This document shows, in pieces, positions 2,548-10,213 of a stretch of DNA of 64,000 nt (position 1 is its first letter; each line of letters opens with the position of its first letter). Under the pieces are notes generated by a model. The model was not told the origin of the DNA. It did not search any database and saw only the letters and a program-made list of their open reading frames with translations. Source of the stretch: an uncultured Clostridia bacterium. Its GTDB lineage: Bacteria > Bacillota > Clostridia > Oscillospirales > CAG-272. Location of the stretch: assembly GCA_944384585.1 (NCBI GenBank), contig CALWTY010000004.1:1563-65562 (forward strand), in the 5' to 3' direction. The position numbers and the translations under genes are program-made.

Positions 2548-4068
2548 ATGATGCAAAATAGACTGTCACTTAAGAAAATCCTGTTCGGCACGACGCCTGT
2601 CGCGGCGGTGTTTCTTCTGATTATGCTTCATACCCTGGGAAGGGGAACACCGCTCGGTTCAGAGCCCTCCATGACGGAACAGACGGAAATGATCCTGTCC
2701 ATGACAGCGGTCCGCGATGTCAGTATTTTCAGCGGTGCGCCGCTGAACGCCGAGGACTTTTTCGCGGAGGGACGTCCTGACGGAGTGAAGATTTCCTTTG
2801 AGACGATTCCCCCGACCGATCGGGCAGGTCGCTACCCCGTGGTCCTGATCCTGAGCCTCGACGGACAGAGTCAGAAGCGGGAAGCGGTCCTGACGGTGAG
2901 CGAATGTCTTTCGCTGCTTCGTCTCCCCATCGGGAGCGACCGTGTGATCTCGGTGGCTGATTTTGTCGGGAATAATGCGACCGATGCGGAATTTGTAGAC
3001 TTCTATCCCAATTCCTTCTCCCGCTCCGAGCCGGGGCTTTACCGCGGCAAGATCCGCATCGACGGACAGCTCTATGAAATCGCGCTGGAGATTGCAGACC
3101 TGACGCCTCCCACCGGCGATCCCGTGACGGGCGTCACCGTCTTTCTGAATCAGACCGTCGATCCGTCGCTTCTGGTGACAAACCTGTCGGATTACGGAAA
3201 GATTACCGTCGGTTATGCGGAAGAGCCCGATTTTTCCCGCGAAGGGGAGATCCCGGTCTCGGTGCTTCTGACCGACGATAGCGGAAATCGGGCGACCGTG
3301 GATACGGTCGTGACGGTGATCCGCGATACCGAGCCGCCGGTGTTTTCCGGCATATCGGATAAGACCATTACGGTCGGTGACGGCATTTCCTATAAAAAGG
3401 GCGTGACGGTGACCGACAACAGCGGAGAGGTGCCGGATTTCACGGTGGACAGCTCCGCCGTCAATCGCAACAAGCCCGGCGTGTATTCCGTCGTGTATAC
3501 CGCGACCGATTCGTCGGGAAATACGGCCAGGGAAACGATGACCGTCACCGTCGTCAGGGTTTCGACCGAGCAGGTCAATCGGAAGCTGGAGCAGATTGCC
3601 GCAAGGATTATTTCCGACGGCATGACGCGGGACGAAAAGATCCTGGCGGTATGGAAATACACCCGCAAGGCGATCACCTACACCGGACGGTCGGACAAAA
3701 CCGATCTCTATTCCGCTGCCTATGAGGGGCTGGTGACCGGCGGGGGAGACTGCTATACCTACTATGCGCTGAATGCGCTGCTCTTTGATTTTCTCGGAAT
3801 CGAAAACGTCGAGGTCCGGCGCGTCGACGGGCAGTCAAGACACTGGTGGAGTCTTGTGCTGTTCGAGGACGGTCTGTGGTATTTTGTCGATTCCTGCCCG
3901 CTGCCCGCCAAGATGGGACAGCACGCGGGAATGACCGGCAGGATGACCAAAAGCGATCTTGCCTATCTGACCTCGCTGTCCGATCAGATCGCCGGCGAAG
4001 AGGGCGTTTATTCCGGCTACTATGAATACGACACGGCGCTGGACGCGCTCTATGCCGTCGCGCCTTGA
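2548..4068 (+). CDS. Membrane-anchored protein with Ig-like (DUF5011-type) repeats and a C-terminal transglutaminase-like domain
   Basis: N-terminal hydrophobic segment; DTEPPVF..VVYTATDSSGNTA Ig-like unit plus earlier similar units; triad motifs GDCYTYY, RHWWSLV, YFVDSC. Confidence 0.8.
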   Translation: MMQNRLSLKKILFGTTPVAAVFLLIMLHTLGRGTPLGSEPSMTEQTEMILSMTAVRDVSIFSGAPLNAEDFFAEGRPDGVKISFETIPPTDRAGRYPVVLILSLDGQSQKREAVLTVSECLSLLRLPIGSDRVISVADFVGNNATDAEFVDFYPNSFSRSEPGLYRGKIRIDGQLYEIALEIADLTPPTGDPVTGVTVFLNQTVDPSLLVTNLSDYGKITVGYAEEPDFSREGEIPVSVLLTDDSGNRATVDTVVTVIRDTEPPVFSGISDKTITVGDGISYKKGVTVTDNSGEVPDFTVDSSAVNRNKPGVYSVVYTATDSSGNTARETMTVTVVRVSTEQVNRKLEQIAARIISDGMTRDEKILAVWKYTRKAITYTGRSDKTDLYSAAYEGLVTGGGDCYTYYALNALLFDFLGIENVEVRRVDGQSRHWWSLVLFEDGLWYFVDSCPLPAKMGQHAGMTGRMTKSDLAYLTSLSDQIAGEEGVYSGYYEYDTALDALYAVAP

Positions 4069-4116: not shown

Positions 4117-5661
4117 ATGACGAATGTTCTTGAGTACCTTGAAAACGCGGTCCGCCTGACCCCCGATAAGATCTGCTATCTGGACGACGACTGCCGGATG
4201 ACCTTCCGCCGTGTGGCGGAGGAGGCGCGGGCGATCGGAAGCCTGCTTGCCCGCCGCGGCGTGTGCCGGAGGCCGGTCGCCGTCTTTATGAAAAAAGGCC
4301 CGCGCGCCGTCACCGCGTTCCTCGGCGCACTTTACGGGGGCTGCTTCTATGTTCCGCTCGACATTGAAATGCCGATGTTCCGGATCGAGCTGATTCTCGG
4401 GCTGCTCGGAGATTGCCCGATCCTCTGCGACGACGCTTCCCTCCCCGTGCTGAAAAAGCTCGGAAGGGAGGAGGACGCGGTCCTCTATGAGACCGCCGCG
4501 GCGGAGGAGACGGACGAGGAGGCGCTTGATGAGGTGAGACGGCACGGAATCGATACCGATCCCGTATATGTGCTGTTCACCTCCGGCTCGACCGGTATTC
4601 CCAAGGGAGTCATCACCTCGCATCGCGCCCTGATCGACTATGTCGATCACCTGTCGCAGATCCTGCGGGTCGATTCCGAATCGGTCTTCGGAAATCAGAC
4701 CCCGCTCTATACCGACGCCTGTCTCAAGGATCTCTATCCCACGCTGAAATGCGGCGCGACGACGGTTTTTATTCCGAAATCCCTCTTTTCCTTTCCGGTC
4801 AGGCTTCTGGAGTATCTCAATCGCCATCGGATCAATACCGTTTGCTGGGTCGCCTCGGCGCTCTCGATCGTTTCCTCGCTCGGCGCTCTTGATTCGGTGA
4901 AGCCCCGTGAGCTTCGCACCGTCGCCTTCGGCTCGGAGGTCTTTCCCGTGCGGCAGCTCCTGCTTTGGCAGAAGGCTCTTCCCGAGGCGCGGTTCATCAA
5001 TCTCTACGGCCCGACGGAATGCACTGGCTGCTGTTGCTTCTATGAGCTTGACCGCCCCTTTGAGACGGAGGAGGTCATTCCCATCGGCAAGCCCTTTCCG
5101 AACGCCGGCGTCTTTCTCCTTTCGGAGGAGGATCGCCCCGTCCCGCAGGGAGAGCTCGGCGAGATCTGCATCAAAGGAACGGGCCTTGCCTACGGCTATT
5201 ATAAGAATCCTCAGAGAACGGCGGAGGTCTTCGTTCAGAATCCTCTCAACGACGCCTACCCGGAGCGCATCTATCGGACGGGAGACCTCGGTCGCTTCAA
5301 CGAGCGGGGAGAGCTGATCTATGTGACCCGCAAGGATTTTCAGATCAAGCATATGGGGTATCGGATCGAACTGGGAGAGATCGAGGTGGTTTGCGCCGCC
5401 TGCGAGGGCGTATCGCTCTGCTGCGCGGTCTATGATCGTGAGAAAAAGCGCATCCTCCTCTACTATACCGGCGAAACGGAAAAAGGAACGCTGCTCGGTT
5501 ATCTCAAGGGAAAGCTGCCGCGGTATATGCTGCCGGCAGAGCTGATCCGGCTGCGCCAAATGCCGCTGACGCTCAATCGGAAGATCGACAGGAAGCGGCT
5601 GGAAACGGAGGGCGCGCCGGAGGAAGCGGCGGAGGAGAGCCGCCGACTGATTTCAGACTGA
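4117..5661 (+). CDS. Stand-alone amino-acid adenylation enzyme (DltA-like)
   Basis: LFTSGSTGIPKG, NLYGPTE, YRTGDLG, KHMGYRIELGEIE, NRKIDR core motifs. Confidence 0.9.
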   Translation: MTNVLEYLENAVRLTPDKICYLDDDCRMTFRRVAEEARAIGSLLARRGVCRRPVAVFMKKGPRAVTAFLGALYGGCFYVPLDIEMPMFRIELILGLLGDCPILCDDASLPVLKKLGREEDAVLYETAAAEETDEEALDEVRRHGIDTDPVYVLFTSGSTGIPKGVITSHRALIDYVDHLSQILRVDSESVFGNQTPLYTDACLKDLYPTLKCGATTVFIPKSLFSFPVRLLEYLNRHRINTVCWVASALSIVSSLGALDSVKPRELRTVAFGSEVFPVRQLLLWQKALPEARFINLYGPTECTGCCCFYELDRPFETEEVIPIGKPFPNAGVFLLSEEDRPVPQGELGEICIKGTGLAYGYYKNPQRTAEVFVQNPLNDAYPERIYRTGDLGRFNERGELIYVTRKDFQIKHMGYRIELGEIEVVCAACEGVSLCCAVYDREKKRILLYYTGETEKGTLLGYLKGKLPRYMLPAELIRLRQMPLTLNRKIDRKRLETEGAPEEAAEESRRLISD

Positions 5662-5693: not shown

Positions 5694-5921
5694 ATGGATA
5701 AGATCATTTCGATGCTCAGGGAGCTTCATCCCGATATCGACTTCGAGACGGCGGAGGCGCTGGTGGACGACGGGATTCTCGATTCGATGGATATCGTATC
5801 ACTGGTGACGGCGATTTACGACGAGTTTGACGTGCGGATCCCCGCCGACAGAATTCTGCCGGAGAATTTCAATTCCGCCGCGGCGCTCGGAAAACTGGTC
5901 AATGAACTGATCGACGAATGA
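5694..5921 (+). CDS. Acyl/aminoacyl carrier protein (DltC-like)
   Basis: 75 aa, acidic; GILDSMDIV phosphopantetheine site. Confidence 0.9.
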   Translation: MDKIISMLRELHPDIDFETAEALVDDGILDSMDIVSLVTAIYDEFDVRIPADRILPENFNSAAALGKLVNELIDE

Positions 5922-7510
5922 GCTTTACCTCCTTTTCGTTTGCGCTGTTTTTTCTCGTCCTTACGCTGCTCTACTATACCGTGGCCGGGAAAAAGCAGTG
6001 GCAGCTTTTGCTGATTGCCGGCTATTTCTTTTATGCCTGCGCCGATCCCCGCTATCTGATCTTCATTCTGGTCACGACTGCCTCCGCATATCTTGTCACG
6101 ATGCGCTTTACGGCGCTCCGACGGGAGCTTGGACGATGGTTTGACGAGCATCCCGAACTGACCCGCGAGGAGAGAAAGAGATACAAGGAAAAAACGGCGT
6201 CCCGCTGTCGGAAATGGCTGCTGCTTGCCGTTTTGCTGAACTTCGGGATTCTGTTCACCTTCAAATACCTGAACTTTTTCCTTGTCAATCTCGATTCGCT
6301 GTTCGGCCTTTTCGGAGGGGGACTGCCGGTCACATCGGTCAGGCTGCTGCTTCCGCTGGGACTTTCGTTTTATATTTTTCAAACGATCGGCTATGTGGCG
6401 GATATTTATTTCGGAAAATACGAAGCCGAACGGAATCCCTTTCGGCTGGCTTTGTTTGTCTCCTTCTTTCCCCAGCTTCTGCAAGGGCCGATCGGGCGCT
6501 ATAATCTGATGGCGCCCACCCTCTTTGCTTCTCATGCCTATGATTCCAAAGCCGTGCGCTTCGGACTTCAGCGGATGCTTTGGGGGTATTTCAAGAAAAT
6601 CGTGATCGCTGACCGACTGATCAAGCCGGTCTCGACGATCGGCGGCGCTCCCGAGGAATACGGCGGCGTCTTTGTGCTGCTTGGGATGCTGCTCTATGCG
6701 GCGCAGCTCTACTGCGACTTTACCGGAGGGATCGATATCACCATCGGCTCAGCGGAGGTGCTGGGCGTCCGGTTGAGCGAGAACTTCAATCGCCCCTTCT
6801 TCTCCAAGAGCGTTGCGGAGTATTGGCGTCGCTGGCATATTACCCTCGGCACCTGGTTCAAGGATTATACCTTCTATCCCCTGTCGACGAGCAAAGCGAT
6901 GATGAAGCTTTCGAAATGGACCAAGGGCAGATTCGGCCCTGCCGTCGCGCGGCGCGTCCCCGTCTATCTCTCCACCGTGATCCTGTGGCTTGCGACCGGC
7001 GCGTGGCACGGCGCGAAATGGAACTTTATCGTCTGGGGACTCGGAAACTGTCTTGTCATCCTGATTTCACAGGAGCTGACGCCCCTATACCGCCGCTTTT
7101 ACGAGCGCTTTCCGAAGCTGCATCGCTCCCGCTTCTGGGACGGAGTGCAGGTGCTTCGCACCAACGGCATCATGTGCCTGCTTCGCACCCTTGACTGCTA
7201 CGCTTCCCCCGGGGCGGCGTTCTTTGCGATCGGAACGATCTTTACCCGCATGAACGGCGGCGCGCTGACGACGGATGCGCTGCTTGAGCTTGGACTGAAG
7301 CCGGCGGATATTGCGGTGACGGCGGTCGGGGTGCTGATCGTCTTTGCCGTCAGCATGGCGGGACGGAGCGGATCGGTCAGAGAAAAGCTCGCCCGGCTTC
7401 CCGCAGGCGTCCGGGTCCTGCTTTTCGGCGCGCTGTTCTTCTCGATTCTGGTGTTCGGCGCTTACGGCATCGGATACGACGCGGGACAGTTTATCTATAC
7501 GCAGTTTTAA
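5918..7510 (+). CDS. MBOAT family O-acyltransferase (DltB/AlgI-like) with C-terminal DltX-like motif
   Basis: LPLGLSFYIFQ, SFFPQLLQGPI, EYWRRWHITLGTWF, TGAWHG (catalytic His); ends in FIYTQF. Confidence 0.92.
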   Translation: MSFTSFSFALFFLVLTLLYYTVAGKKQWQLLLIAGYFFYACADPRYLIFILVTTASAYLVTMRFTALRRELGRWFDEHPELTREERKRYKEKTASRCRKWLLLAVLLNFGILFTFKYLNFFLVNLDSLFGLFGGGLPVTSVRLLLPLGLSFYIFQTIGYVADIYFGKYEAERNPFRLALFVSFFPQLLQGPIGRYNLMAPTLFASHAYDSKAVRFGLQRMLWGYFKKIVIADRLIKPVSTIGGAPEEYGGVFVLLGMLLYAAQLYCDFTGGIDITIGSAEVLGVRLSENFNRPFFSKSVAEYWRRWHITLGTWFKDYTFYPLSTSKAMMKLSKWTKGRFGPAVARRVPVYLSTVILWLATGAWHGAKWNFIVWGLGNCLVILISQELTPLYRRFYERFPKLHRSRFWDGVQVLRTNGIMCLLRTLDCYASPGAAFFAIGTIFTRMNGGALTTDALLELGLKPADIAVTAVGVLIVFAVSMAGRSGSVREKLARLPAGVRVLLFGALFFSILVFGAYGIGYDAGQFIYTQF

Positions 7511-7522
7511 GGCGGTGGCGAA

Positions 7523-8590
7523 ATGAAAAAACGGCTTGCGGCTGTTGCGGTCTGCCTGTCGGCGGTGCTGATCTTCTTCGCATTGCAGGCGCTGCTCACG
7601 CCGAAATACATCACCGAGGCGCAGGAGGGCAATCTCCTTGCGGAATATTACGATTCCGGGAAAAATCACGACGTGATCTTTATCGGGGATTGCGAGGTCT
7701 ATGAAAACATCGACCCGGTTGTGCTGTGGAGAGAATACGGAATTTCCTCCTATGTCAGAGGCTCGCCCCAGCAGCTGATCTGGATGTCCTATTATCTCAT
7801 GGAGGAGACCCTGCGGTACGAGAAGCCCGATGTCTTCGTCTTCAACGTGCTGGCAATGAAATACGGGGAGCCTCAGAGCGAGGCCTATAACCGGCTGGCG
7901 CATGACGGAATGAGACTGTCAGGGAGCAAGCTGCGCTCCGTCCGGGCATCGATGACCGAGGAGGAGAGCTTCCTCTCCTATCTTTTTCCGCTCCTACGCT
8001 ATCATTCCCGCTGGTCGGAGCTGGATAAGAACGATCTGAAATATTGGTTCAAACCCGCCCCTCAGATTTCCTGTGCCGGCTATCTGATGCGGGTGGATAC
8101 CAAAGGGATCGATTTCATCCCGCCGGGACAGGAGCTGCCCGACTATCGGTTTTCCGGGCTCTGCTATGAATATCTCGATAAAATGACGGCGCTCTGCCGC
8201 GAAAACGGGATCGAGCTTGTGCTGATCAAGGCGCCCTCCCTCAGCCCCTATTGGTATGATCAGTGGGATGAGCAGATCGAGGAATATGCCGAGAAAAACG
8301 ACCTTTTGTATTACAACTTCCTTGAAATGTCGGAGCAGACCGGCATTGATTATATGACCGATACCTACGACGCGGGCCTTCATCTGAATCTCGCGGGGGC
8401 GGAGAAGCTCACCCGCCTGATGGGGGAGCTTTTGATGCGGGAATACGATCTGACCGATCACCGCGGCGACGCGGCGTATCGGGAGGAATGGGATCGGATC
8501 GCGGCGTTCCACGACAGGGTCAAGGCGCATCAGGAGAAAGAGCTTGCCGAGAATGGCTACTTGTCGGGCTTTACCTATTTTGAAGATTGA
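7523..8590 (+). CDS. SGNH-like / DltD-like extracytoplasmic acyltransferase
   Basis: N-terminal signal anchor; block I VIFIGDCEVY; block V YDAGLHLNLAGA. Confidence 0.75.
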   Translation: MKKRLAAVAVCLSAVLIFFALQALLTPKYITEAQEGNLLAEYYDSGKNHDVIFIGDCEVYENIDPVVLWREYGISSYVRGSPQQLIWMSYYLMEETLRYEKPDVFVFNVLAMKYGEPQSEAYNRLAHDGMRLSGSKLRSVRASMTEEESFLSYLFPLLRYHSRWSELDKNDLKYWFKPAPQISCAGYLMRVDTKGIDFIPPGQELPDYRFSGLCYEYLDKMTALCRENGIELVLIKAPSLSPYWYDQWDEQIEEYAEKNDLLYYNFLEMSEQTGIDYMTDTYDAGLHLNLAGAEKLTRLMGELLMREYDLTDHRGDAAYREEWDRIAAFHDRVKAHQEKELAENGYLSGFTYFED

Positions 8591-8604
8591 GAAAGGATGG
8601 AATC

Positions 8605-9162
8605 ATGAAAAAACGGATTTGTGTATGGCTGTCTGCGCTTTTGCTGACAGCGTTGCTTGCCGGCTGCGGAGAGCCCTCCGGCGAGAGAGAGGAGAGCGGG
8701 TCTGCGGGGGATCAGACGACGGCATCCGTCACGGCTTCTGCCCCGGCGTCGGAAAAGAAGGGCTATCTCTTCCGGTTTGACGGCAAGGATGTATACTGCA
8801 ATCAGGACGGCGAGGAGGCGCTCTCGATTCTCGGAGAATTCGAACATAAGCTGGAATCTCCCTCCTGTGCCTTTGACGGCGTGGATACCACCTATTATTA
8901 CGCTTCGGTGCAGCTGATCACCTACACCGACGGATCGTCTCCTTCGAAGGTGCTGTCGATCTATCTGCAGGATGATACCGTCGAAACGGCGGAAGGAATC
9001 TCAGTGGGAGACAGCAAGGAGGACGTGGAGGCCGCCTACGGCGAGCCGGCAGAGCGGGGGGAGAACAGTCTGATTTTCGAAAAGGACGGAATGAGGCTGA
9101 CCTTTGTCTTCAACGAGGACGGCGTTTCGTCGGTTCTCTATTCTCTGATCACGGAGGAATAA
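8605..9162 (+). CDS. Lipoprotein of unknown function
   Basis: ATG 8605 after GAAAGGA; MKKR + hydrophobic stretch + lipobox LAGC (Cys21); Ser/Thr/Ala linker; GISVGDSKEDVEAAYGEP domain. Confidence 0.8.
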   Translation: MKKRICVWLSALLLTALLAGCGEPSGEREESGSAGDQTTASVTASAPASEKKGYLFRFDGKDVYCNQDGEEALSILGEFEHKLESPSCAFDGVDTTYYYASVQLITYTDGSSPSKVLSIYLQDDTVETAEGISVGDSKEDVEAAYGEPAERGENSLIFEKDGMRLTFVFNEDGVSSVLYSLITEE

Positions 9163-9167
9163 GGTTG

Positions 9168-9199
9168 CCGCCGTCACCCGAACGGGTGACGGCGGTTTT
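9168..9199 (+). terminator. Rho-independent terminator of the Dlt-like operon
   Basis: CCGCCGTCACCC-GAAC-GGGTGACGGCGG-TTTT. Confidence 0.8.
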
Positions 9200-9273
9200 A
9201 TCGATGGCGGGAAGCGGGGATCGGCGGGCGGGAAGGCATCAGGGCATCGGGGCTGTAAGCCTGTCTGCGTCCC

Positions 9274-9376
9274 GCCGCCCGTTCGGAAGCAATCTCTACG
9301 ACGTTTTGCCGCCGGTCGGAAGCAAATCCTTACGACGTTCCGCCGCCCGGCCGGAAGCAAATCCTTACGACGTTTC
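9274..9376. repeat. Three tandem copies of a 34-35-bp unit
   Basis: GCCGCC..CGGAAGCAA(A)TC(C)TTACGACGTT units start at 9274, 9308 and 9342 with no spacers. Confidence 0.85.
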
Positions 9377-10213
9377 GCCTCCTCCGCCGGTTGAGGACTT
9401 ACCCGCCCTTGCTTCAACGGGTGTCAGCCCGAAGGCCTTTCGGTATACCTTGGAGAAATATCCCGCGTCGCGGAAGCCGCAGTCGAAGGCAATGCTTTTG
9501 ACGGGGCGGTTTGTCCCGGTTATCAGCTTCTCCGCCTCCGCAAGGCGCAGCTCGTTCAGCTTATCGGACACCGAACAGCCGTATTTCTTTTTGAAGGAGG
9601 AGAGGAGGTGTGTACGGCTGCAGAGAAACTCCCCGCATAGCCGTTCCAGCGTAATTCTCTCGCGATAATGCTCCGACAGATACGACAAAACCGTCTCCGG
9701 CAGATCGCGGGTTTTCGGTCGGAGAATGTTTGACAGCGTGATATAGCCGGCGAAGACCGACATGATGTTGGCATAGGTGCGAAGCATCGGCTCCCCCACC
9801 CGCGGAATCTGCCCGACGGCGGCGGAGAGGGAGCTGTCGGATTGCCCGAGAAGAACGGATGCCGCCTCAAGCGCCGCATGAAGCTCGGCCTCGGTCTCCC
9901 CCAGCACCTGCCCCATCATCAGATAGCCGATCGGTACGTCATAGCGGCAGATCGGGCAGACCGCCTCCCACAGCCCGAAAGGGCATCGGTAGACGACAAG
10001 CCCCCGCTCCCGATCGGCGGCGCGGAAGGCCGCGTCATCGCTCATGCGGCAGCGCTCCTCCGCCTCCGCCGAGGCGTGAAGAAGACGGCAGAACCGGAGA
10101 GGCTCCTCCGGGCAGGAGGCAAGCTCCTTTCCGTCGCGGTCGTGGATCGAGATTCTGAAGCCGGTGGCGCGGTGCAGCTCCCGCAGCAGCGAGGAGAGAT
10201 CCGGTTGCTTCAT
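9365..10213 (-). CDS. AraC family regulator with N-terminal PocR-type sensor domain
   Basis: FCRLLH, YRCPFGLWEAVCPI (PocR); C-terminal double HTH ..IAFDCGFRDAGYFSKVYRKAFGLTP. Confidence 0.9.
   Translation of the reverse strand: MKQPDLSSLLRELHRATGFRISIHDRDGKELASCPEEPLRFCRLLHASAEAEERCRMSDDAAFRAADRERGLVVYRCPFGLWEAVCPICRYDVPIGYLMMGQVLGETEAELHAALEAASVLLGQSDSSLSAAVGQIPRVGEPMLRTYANIMSVFAGYITLSNILRPKTRDLPETVLSYLSEHYRERITLERLCGEFLCSRTHLLSSFKKKYGCSVSDKLNELRLAEAEKLITGTNRPVKSIAFDCGFRDAGYFSKVYRKAFGLTPVEARAGKSSTGGGGETS

Follow-up and report, generated by a model that had tools for sequence, protein, structure and literature searches.

A carrier-linked membrane-bound O-acyltransferase with a putative fused tyrosine shuttle motif in a conserved six-gene cassette of Clostridia

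Bacterial pathways that pair a membrane-bound O-acyltransferase (MBOAT) with an SGNH-fold partner have been divided into two types: the Dlt pathway, in which a carrier protein donates the acyl group and a separate microprotein acts as the shuttle, and all others, which use acyl-CoA, lack a carrier protein and have the shuttle fused to the MBOAT (Anderson et al. 2025, PMC12148441). The cassette described here breaks this two-way division. It is located on a stretch of 64,000 nucleotides from an uncultured Clostridia bacterium (Bacillota; Oscillospirales; CAG-272), which is referred to as the window (positions 1,563 to 65,562 of the forward strand of contig CALWTY010000004.1, assembly GCA_944384585.1), and it combines an adenylation enzyme and a carrier protein with an MBOAT that ends in the hexapeptide FIYTQF. 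It is probable, at roughly two chances in three, that this MBOAT carries out the membrane-crossing step in a cassette of six genes for aminoacylation of the envelope, is fed by the carrier protein and uses its own C-terminal tyrosine as the shuttle. A first reading of the DNA, made from the letters alone (the sequence-only reading), had proposed a hybrid of a DltA/DltC-style aminoacyl donor and an AlgI-style self-shuttling MBOAT. This proposal is supported by sequence, synteny and fold, because the order of the genes for the adenylation enzyme, carrier protein, MBOAT and SGNH-like protein is conserved, the stop codon of the carrier protein gene overlaps the start codon of the MBOAT gene, the MBOAT possesses a DltB-like insert and its tail aligns with DltX. 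The background on which the proposal was built agrees with Anderson et al.: DltX ends in FXYXXF, with the tyrosine as the acyl carrier, and in other bacterial MBOATs the motif is fused to the C-terminus, following two extra transmembrane (TM) helices (PMC12148441).

The MBOAT is encoded by the open reading frame (ORF) 5918-7510 on the plus strand, on which all features of the window described below are located unless stated otherwise. The 530-amino acid protein is assigned to the MBOAT family by Pfam (PF03062, 65.5 bits), and its only NCBIfam match is DltB, which scores 133.6 bits over residues 142 to 420 (cut-off 375); a structural model and its match to DltB are consistent with this assignment. 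The protein ends in GYDAGQFIYTQF, followed by the stop codon. Reading of the codons at 7490-7510 (TTT ATC TAT ACG CAG TTT TAA) confirmed that the last six residues are F525, I526, Y527, T528, Q529 and F530; the hexapeptide thus occupies positions 7490-7507, with Tyr527 at 7496-7498 and the stop codon at 7508-7510. Among the 54,670 stop-to-stop frames of at least 20 amino acids in the whole 2.29-Mb genome, only three end in F.Y..F, namely the window MBOAT, a second MBOAT on contig C83 and one 23-amino acid frame. The motif is therefore not there by chance, since two of the three frames are the two MBOATs of the genome. The absence of a separate dltX ORF, likewise claimed from the sequence alone, also held: the genome, which is 95% complete, had no match to the DltX model PF12459 above the cut-off, the only hit being a spurious one of 16.9 bits, and a relaxed motif scan of the genome found no DltX-like small ORF. 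Conservation of the tyrosine had been named as a check on the shuttle motif, and Tyr527 is retained in all homologues inspected, as a FIYxxF ending is present in 121 of 121 database homologues (50 to 72% identity, 525 to 544 amino acids) and in 80 of 80 orthologues from species-representative genomes. The most common tail is FIYNQF (69 of the 80 orthologues). In an alignment of 22 sequences, in which the mean column identity is 66%, F525, I526, Y527 and F530 are invariant, and the same is true for H364 and H307.

The AlphaFold2 model of the MBOAT (mean pLDDT 82.5, pTM 0.81) has its best match in the Protein Data Bank (PDB) in DltB (6bug_C), with a Z-score of 26.0 and a root-mean-square deviation of 3.1 Å over 381 residues; residues 1 to 436 of the model are superimposed on residues 11 to 412 of the chain. 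His364 (7007-7009) aligns in the HMMER alignment with the catalytic histidine His336 of DltB, and His307 (6836-6838) is found opposite residue 289; both DltB positions have been named as active-site residues (PMC11035591). As the DltB match stops at residue 436, residues 437 to 530 are an extra portion, which is modelled as a TM helix (462 to 482; 7301-7363), a short helix (487 to 492), a second and DltX-like TM helix (496 to 514; 7403-7459) and the tail (517 to 530). The same layout has been described for PatA, in which a peripheral cytoplasmic helix lies between two TM helices, the second of which returns the motif to the outer face (Anderson et al. 2025, PMC12148441). Arg483, Arg488 and Arg499 flank the last helix and are invariant, which under the positive-inside rule would fit a cytoplasmic loop. 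Eight DltX or DltX-like microproteins of the same phylum, which end in FIYNEF, FIYNQF, FTYAEF, FAYAEF, FIYNNF or FIYNGF, were combined into a profile and compared by hhalign with a profile built from the last 50 residues of the MBOAT family; the two aligned end-to-end over 32 columns (91.7% probability, E 7.7e-7). A phmmer search of the PDB sequences with the 59-amino acid tail retrieved no DltX chain, only chance matches to G protein-coupled receptors.

The genes around the MBOAT were compared in 80 related loci. The order of adenylation enzyme, carrier protein, MBOAT and SGNH-like protein is kept in at least 74 of these, and the neighbours of the MBOAT include an adenylation enzyme (76 loci), a carrier protein (75), an SGNH-like protein (79), a transglutaminase/Ig-like protein (68) and a lipoprotein (65). 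The first gene of the cassette in the window (2548-4068) encodes a secreted or anchored protein with Ig-like and transglutaminase-core domains (PF16403, PF01841). It is followed by the gene for a stand-alone, DltA-like amino-acid adenylation enzyme (4117-5661; TIGR01733, 330.5 bits with a cut-off of 317.4), which by its scores and substrate pocket is no DltA equivalog and which has the residues Asp200, Ala201, Lys204, Gly272 and Lys489. The 75-amino acid carrier protein (5694-5921; PF00550) has the phosphopantetheine attachment site Ser31 in an LDS motif (5784-5786), with D30 and S31 conserved, and its stop codon and the start codon of the MBOAT share an ATGA sequence. The gene for the SGNH-like partner (7523-8590, 355 amino acids) starts 13 nt 3' of the MBOAT gene; its product is membrane-anchored by an N-terminal TM helix and adopts an SGNH fold, with structural matches of Z 11 to 13 (TesA 1ivn, Z 12.3; PatB 7tjb, Z 11.0). 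At the position of the nucleophile, the partner has Cys57 (7691-7693) in a GDC motif, by which GDS is replaced in 77 of 78 orthologues. The motif DAGLHLN (D(A/G)GLH(L/M)N in the family) contains His287; the nearest carrier-less relatives of the partner have GSSH. The last conserved gene (8587-9162, or possibly from the ATG at 8605 onwards) encodes a lipoprotein with an LLAGC lipobox and no clear family. It directly follows the SGNH-like gene in the 65 loci, and for this reason the cassette is counted as six genes.

Which donor an MBOAT uses might be reflected by its cytoplasmic loop. Between the RWH and WHG motifs, 43 MBOATs were aligned, of which 25 are carrier-less, 12 are fused and linked to an acyl carrier protein (ACP) gene and six are DltBs. 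The compact loop (I/F)P(L/M)GG(S/N)(R/K/C) is shared by all 25 MBOATs without a nearby carrier gene, both fused and split. None of the 12 fused MBOATs linked to an ACP and none of the six DltBs has this PLGG(S/N)R loop; they possess a Lys/Arg-rich insert of 10 to 17 residues instead. In the window MBOAT, the basic segment comprises residues 321 to 348 (6878-6961), including K333, K336, R338, R345 and R346, and aligns with the tip of HC, a horizontal helix of DltB, and with the start of TMH8. In S. thermophilus DltB, this region binds the carrier: Lys312 and Arg317 form salt bridges to Glu40 of DltC, and M302, V305, I306 and M309 pack on DltC (PMC11035591). The HMMER alignment places K333 and R338 of the window MBOAT at the positions of Lys312 and Arg317. 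Basic positions that are conserved in carrier-less MBOATs are lost in the window family at P348 and Q385, and largely in DltB too. The cytoplasmic face of the window MBOAT is thus read as DltB-like and its C-terminal end as AlgI/PatA-like, and, by analogy to DltB, the insert may serve as the docking site of the carrier protein. The choice between a PLGG(S/N)R loop and a basic insert is a possible sequence marker of donor type for any bacterial MBOAT. A second Lys/Arg-rich segment (REERKRYKEK...) is found at 6164-6187 (residues 83 to 90, within a basic stretch of about residues 65 to 100); it occurs in the ACP-linked fused clade, is found neither in DltB nor in carrier-less MBOATs, and could be a second carrier-docking surface.

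The fused motif by itself is ordinary. It was found in 22 of 25 non-DltB MBOATs sampled from the phylum of the window in the GTDB taxonomy, and since it is the norm for these proteins, only its pairing with a carrier protein is unusual. The same layout of adenylation enzyme, ACP, fused MBOAT and SGNH-like protein was found in a distant ACP-linked subfamily, in the locus of a second ACP-linked fused MBOAT (G048; locus L124, contig C18, 5310-10786 on the minus strand), which encodes an adenylation enzyme (462 bits to that of the window), a 391-amino acid protein that by eye looks like a pyridoxal phosphate-dependent decarboxylase, an ACP, a 514-amino acid MBOAT ending in FIYAQF and an SGNH-like protein with GTSH, that is, with Ser and not Cys. 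Quick IQ-TREE trees were calculated from all columns and from the core columns only, and both unite the window family with G048 (SH-aLRT 100). Three further loci (L128 to L130) have an SGNH gene upstream and a tail-less MBOAT, which is directly followed on the plus strand by a separate ORF of 40 to 54 amino acids ending in FIYGGF or FIYTDF (L128 8862-9023, L129 8358-8477, L130 8172-8291). Their MBOATs score about 212 bits with the DltB model, below its cut-off, and no adenylation enzyme gene is present within about 7 kb. From their sequences, these loci are classed as having a split shuttle that is collinear with the fused form and is not accompanied by a carrier protein, the fourth combination of donor type and shuttle architecture. 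The genome of the window also harbours a second MBOAT-SGNH pair on contig C83 (locus L001), with the MBOAT at 1126-2538 and the SGNH protein at 1-1086, both on the minus strand. This MBOAT (470 amino acids) ends in FLYFNF and has a PLGGSR loop. The SGNH partner possesses GDS and DGVHL motifs and a Pro/Thr/Glu-rich tail, and no adenylation enzyme or ACP gene lies beside the pair. The pair shares the fused motif and the directly downstream SGNH gene with the window cassette and represents an ordinary carrier-less internal control.

Several observations weigh against a carrier-fed MBOAT with its own shuttle. In both trees, the clade of the window family and G048 is sister (support 99) to carrier-less fused MBOATs, and DltB is placed on a separate long branch. 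A tree in which all carrier-linked MBOATs form one clade is 14.1 log-likelihood units worse, a topology that the approximately unbiased test does not reject (p = 0.102). Because the family nests among carrier-less fused MBOATs, far from DltB, the basic insert could be convergent, or it could be unrelated to ACP docking; of the aligned docking residues, only K333 is nearly invariant in the family, and R338 is variable. As to the tail, residues 517 to 530 are modelled with a pLDDT below 50, the hhalign score derives in part from the composition of the TM helix and the common hexapeptide, and the Pfam model PF12459 fails to detect the tail. The nesting in the tree would be expected for an ordinary AlgI/PatA-type O-acetyltransferase that uses acetyl-CoA, in which case the adenylation enzyme and the ACP would serve another step, such as one involving the transglutaminase-like protein or a cytoplasmic product. 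The nearest relatives L098, L099 and L118, which have neither an adenylation enzyme nor an ACP gene within about 6 kb, fit this explanation, as does the fused motif, which is typical of acyl-CoA users. However, an ACP gene is found in 75 of 80 loci, immediately upstream and with a stop/start overlap in the window, and the cassette encodes no other enzyme able to accept the aminoacyl-ACP. In addition, the DltB-like basic insert replaces the PLGG(S/N)R loop, and the basic residues at P348 and Q385 are lost. Judged by gene context and the missing loop only, the acyl-CoA donor and lack of a carrier that define the AlgI/PatA type would not apply to the window MBOAT, and an acetyl-CoA-dependent enzyme is regarded as unlikely. 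The low confidence of the modelled tail would also suit a structural or sorting element whose tyrosine carries no acyl group in the window family. This is the least probable of the explanations weighed here, as the tyrosine is invariant and strictly C-terminal in about 200 sequences, and the same motif is the experimentally shown acyl-Tyr site of PatA (Y445F; PMC12148441) and, as cited in that paper, of DltX.

A carrier-fed MBOAT with an own shuttle could in principle also be part of canonical teichoic acid d-alanylation, with DltX simply fused to DltB. The sole NCBIfam match of the MBOAT to DltB, the matches of the adenylation enzyme and the ACP to the DltA and DltC models and the identity of the tail with DltX tails are in line with this, but the scores are far below the equivalog cut-offs (DltA 255 of 560, DltB 133.6 of 375 and DltC 30.3 of 68 bits). 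The partner has no match to the DltD family PF04914 at E ≤ 0.01 and matches only Lipase_GDSL_2, weakly. The substrate pocket of the adenylation enzyme, which was compared at the A4, 'FCGE' and A10 positions only, reads mostly FDLSV(M/L)D and FCGE in six true DltAs of the phylum and xDACLK(D/E) and F(G/A)SE in the window family, with DACLK...FGSE in the window against DLSVM...FCGE in true DltA. The canonical DltBs (388 to 404 amino acids, over the cut-off) lack an F.Y..F tail and form a separate clade, and a DltX ORF, ending in FIYNQF or FIYNEF in the phylum, was present near all six examined. Moreover, the window cassette contains additional transglutaminase-like and lipoprotein genes. Since the Dlt scores are below cut-off, the pocket differs and the SGNH-like partner has Cys in place of Ser, the window cassette is, from its sequence, not a canonical dlt operon, and a mere fusion of DltX to DltB in the d-alanylation pathway appears highly improbable. 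The α-amino-binding aspartate (D200) and the A10 lysine (K489) are retained, and the pocket is unlike that of DltA; therefore, the substrate is probably an α-amino acid other than D-Ala. By the codes of non-ribosomal peptide synthetases, the pocket lysine K204 may hint at an acidic side chain.

For the carrier-fed MBOAT, we infer the following chemical steps, including the direction of transfer and the nature of the amino acid and of the acceptor. The adenylation enzyme would activate an α-amino acid other than D-Ala and load it onto the phosphopantetheine at Ser31 of the 75-amino acid carrier, which might then dock on the Lys/Arg-rich insert at about residues 326 to 348 on the cytoplasmic side of the MBOAT, as DltC does on DltB. 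His364 would catalyse transfer of the aminoacyl group through the tunnel of the MBOAT onto its own Tyr527, which would be located outside the membrane after the two extra TM helices. The flexible tail could hand the resulting aminoacyl-Tyr ester to the membrane-anchored SGNH-fold protein, in which Cys57, and not a serine, would take over the group and pass it on to an acceptor in the envelope. A Cys thioester following a Tyr ester would suit transfer onto an amine acceptor.

Relatives of the window MBOAT were found in at least 579 species-representative genomes. The hosts are mostly Lachnospiraceae and Oscillospiraceae of the gut and rumen and include several cultured strains; cultured bacteria with the cassette are, for example, Pseudobutyrivibrio ruminis, P. 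xylanivorans, Anaerotaenia torta DSM 100431, Cohnella lupini CECT 8236 and Mobilitalea sibirica. The 80 loci belong to Lachnospiraceae, Oscillospiraceae, other Clostridia, Cohnella lupini and metagenome-assembled genomes of Anaerolineaceae and Gastranaerophilales. The family is present in 12 of 18 congeners, in one of six genomes of other genera of the same family and in none of 16 genomes of the other families of the order. When 400 genomes were drawn evenly from the phylum, the only orthologue among them was that of the window itself; such family-balanced sampling appears too sparse for a patchy cassette, and the distribution was taken from the searches of species-representative genomes and congeners. 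The copies of congeners (G401 to G417) are mostly about 50% identical to the window MBOAT, with 72% reached by G412, and about 50% is also found for the copies of Lachnospiraceae, Cohnella and the Anaerolineaceae and Gastranaerophilales genomes. As most congener copies are no closer than those of Lachnospiraceae, the sequences suggest a patchy history, and the identities as a whole suggest horizontal spread or two paralogous lineages.

Upstream of the cassette, a promoter-like site (TTGACT-17-TATACT with TG) is found at 2416-2444, identified by its match to the consensus only. Downstream, none of the 80 loci has an equivalent of ORF 9165-9668, which probably does not represent a gene. At 10287-10260, the minus strand has a perfect sigma-70-like promoter (12/12).

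No description of a carrier-fed MBOAT with a fused shuttle was found in the literature searched, which was a limited full-text collection. It is tempting to speculate, albeit with some doubt, that donor type and shuttle architecture are independent modules, of which all four combinations exist, and that the window family represents the carrier-fed form in which the shuttle is not split. The family would be either a remnant of the ancestor whose fission gave rise to DltB and DltX or a lineage that recruited an aminoacyl carrier independently. It might then attach an amino acid other than D-Ala to the envelope of several hundred species of Clostridia via a relay from a Tyr ester to a Cys thioester. 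The cassette offers a single-polypeptide model of how a carrier-delivered acyl group may cross the membrane onto a tyrosine, and it suggests that the cell surface of Clostridia bears an aminoacyl decoration yet to be characterised.

Compared with known systems, the window cassette has the adenylation enzyme and carrier protein as predicted donor, the MBOAT and the tyrosine shuttle motif in common with the Dlt pathway, the family tail FIYNQF being sequence-identical to that of DltX, as well as a basic cytoplasmic segment where K312 and R317 of DltB bind DltC. Unlike in the Dlt pathway, the shuttle helix and its motif are part of the MBOAT and no DltX microprotein is present, the pocket of the adenylation enzyme has DAxxK and Gly in place of DLxxM and Cys of DltA, the partner with its cysteine is outside the DltD Pfam family and the MBOAT is outside the DltB clade. 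With the PatA/PatB and AlgI pairs (PMC12148441), the cassette shares the MBOAT core with its catalytic histidine, the strictly C-terminal FxYxxF with an invariant tyrosine, the extra C-terminal layout of two TM helices with a short helix between them and an adjoining membrane-anchored partner with an SGNH fold. It differs from these pairs by the adenylation enzyme and carrier protein encoded directly upstream, the DltB-like insert, the cysteine at the nucleophile position of the partner and the conserved genes for the transglutaminase-like protein and the lipoprotein.

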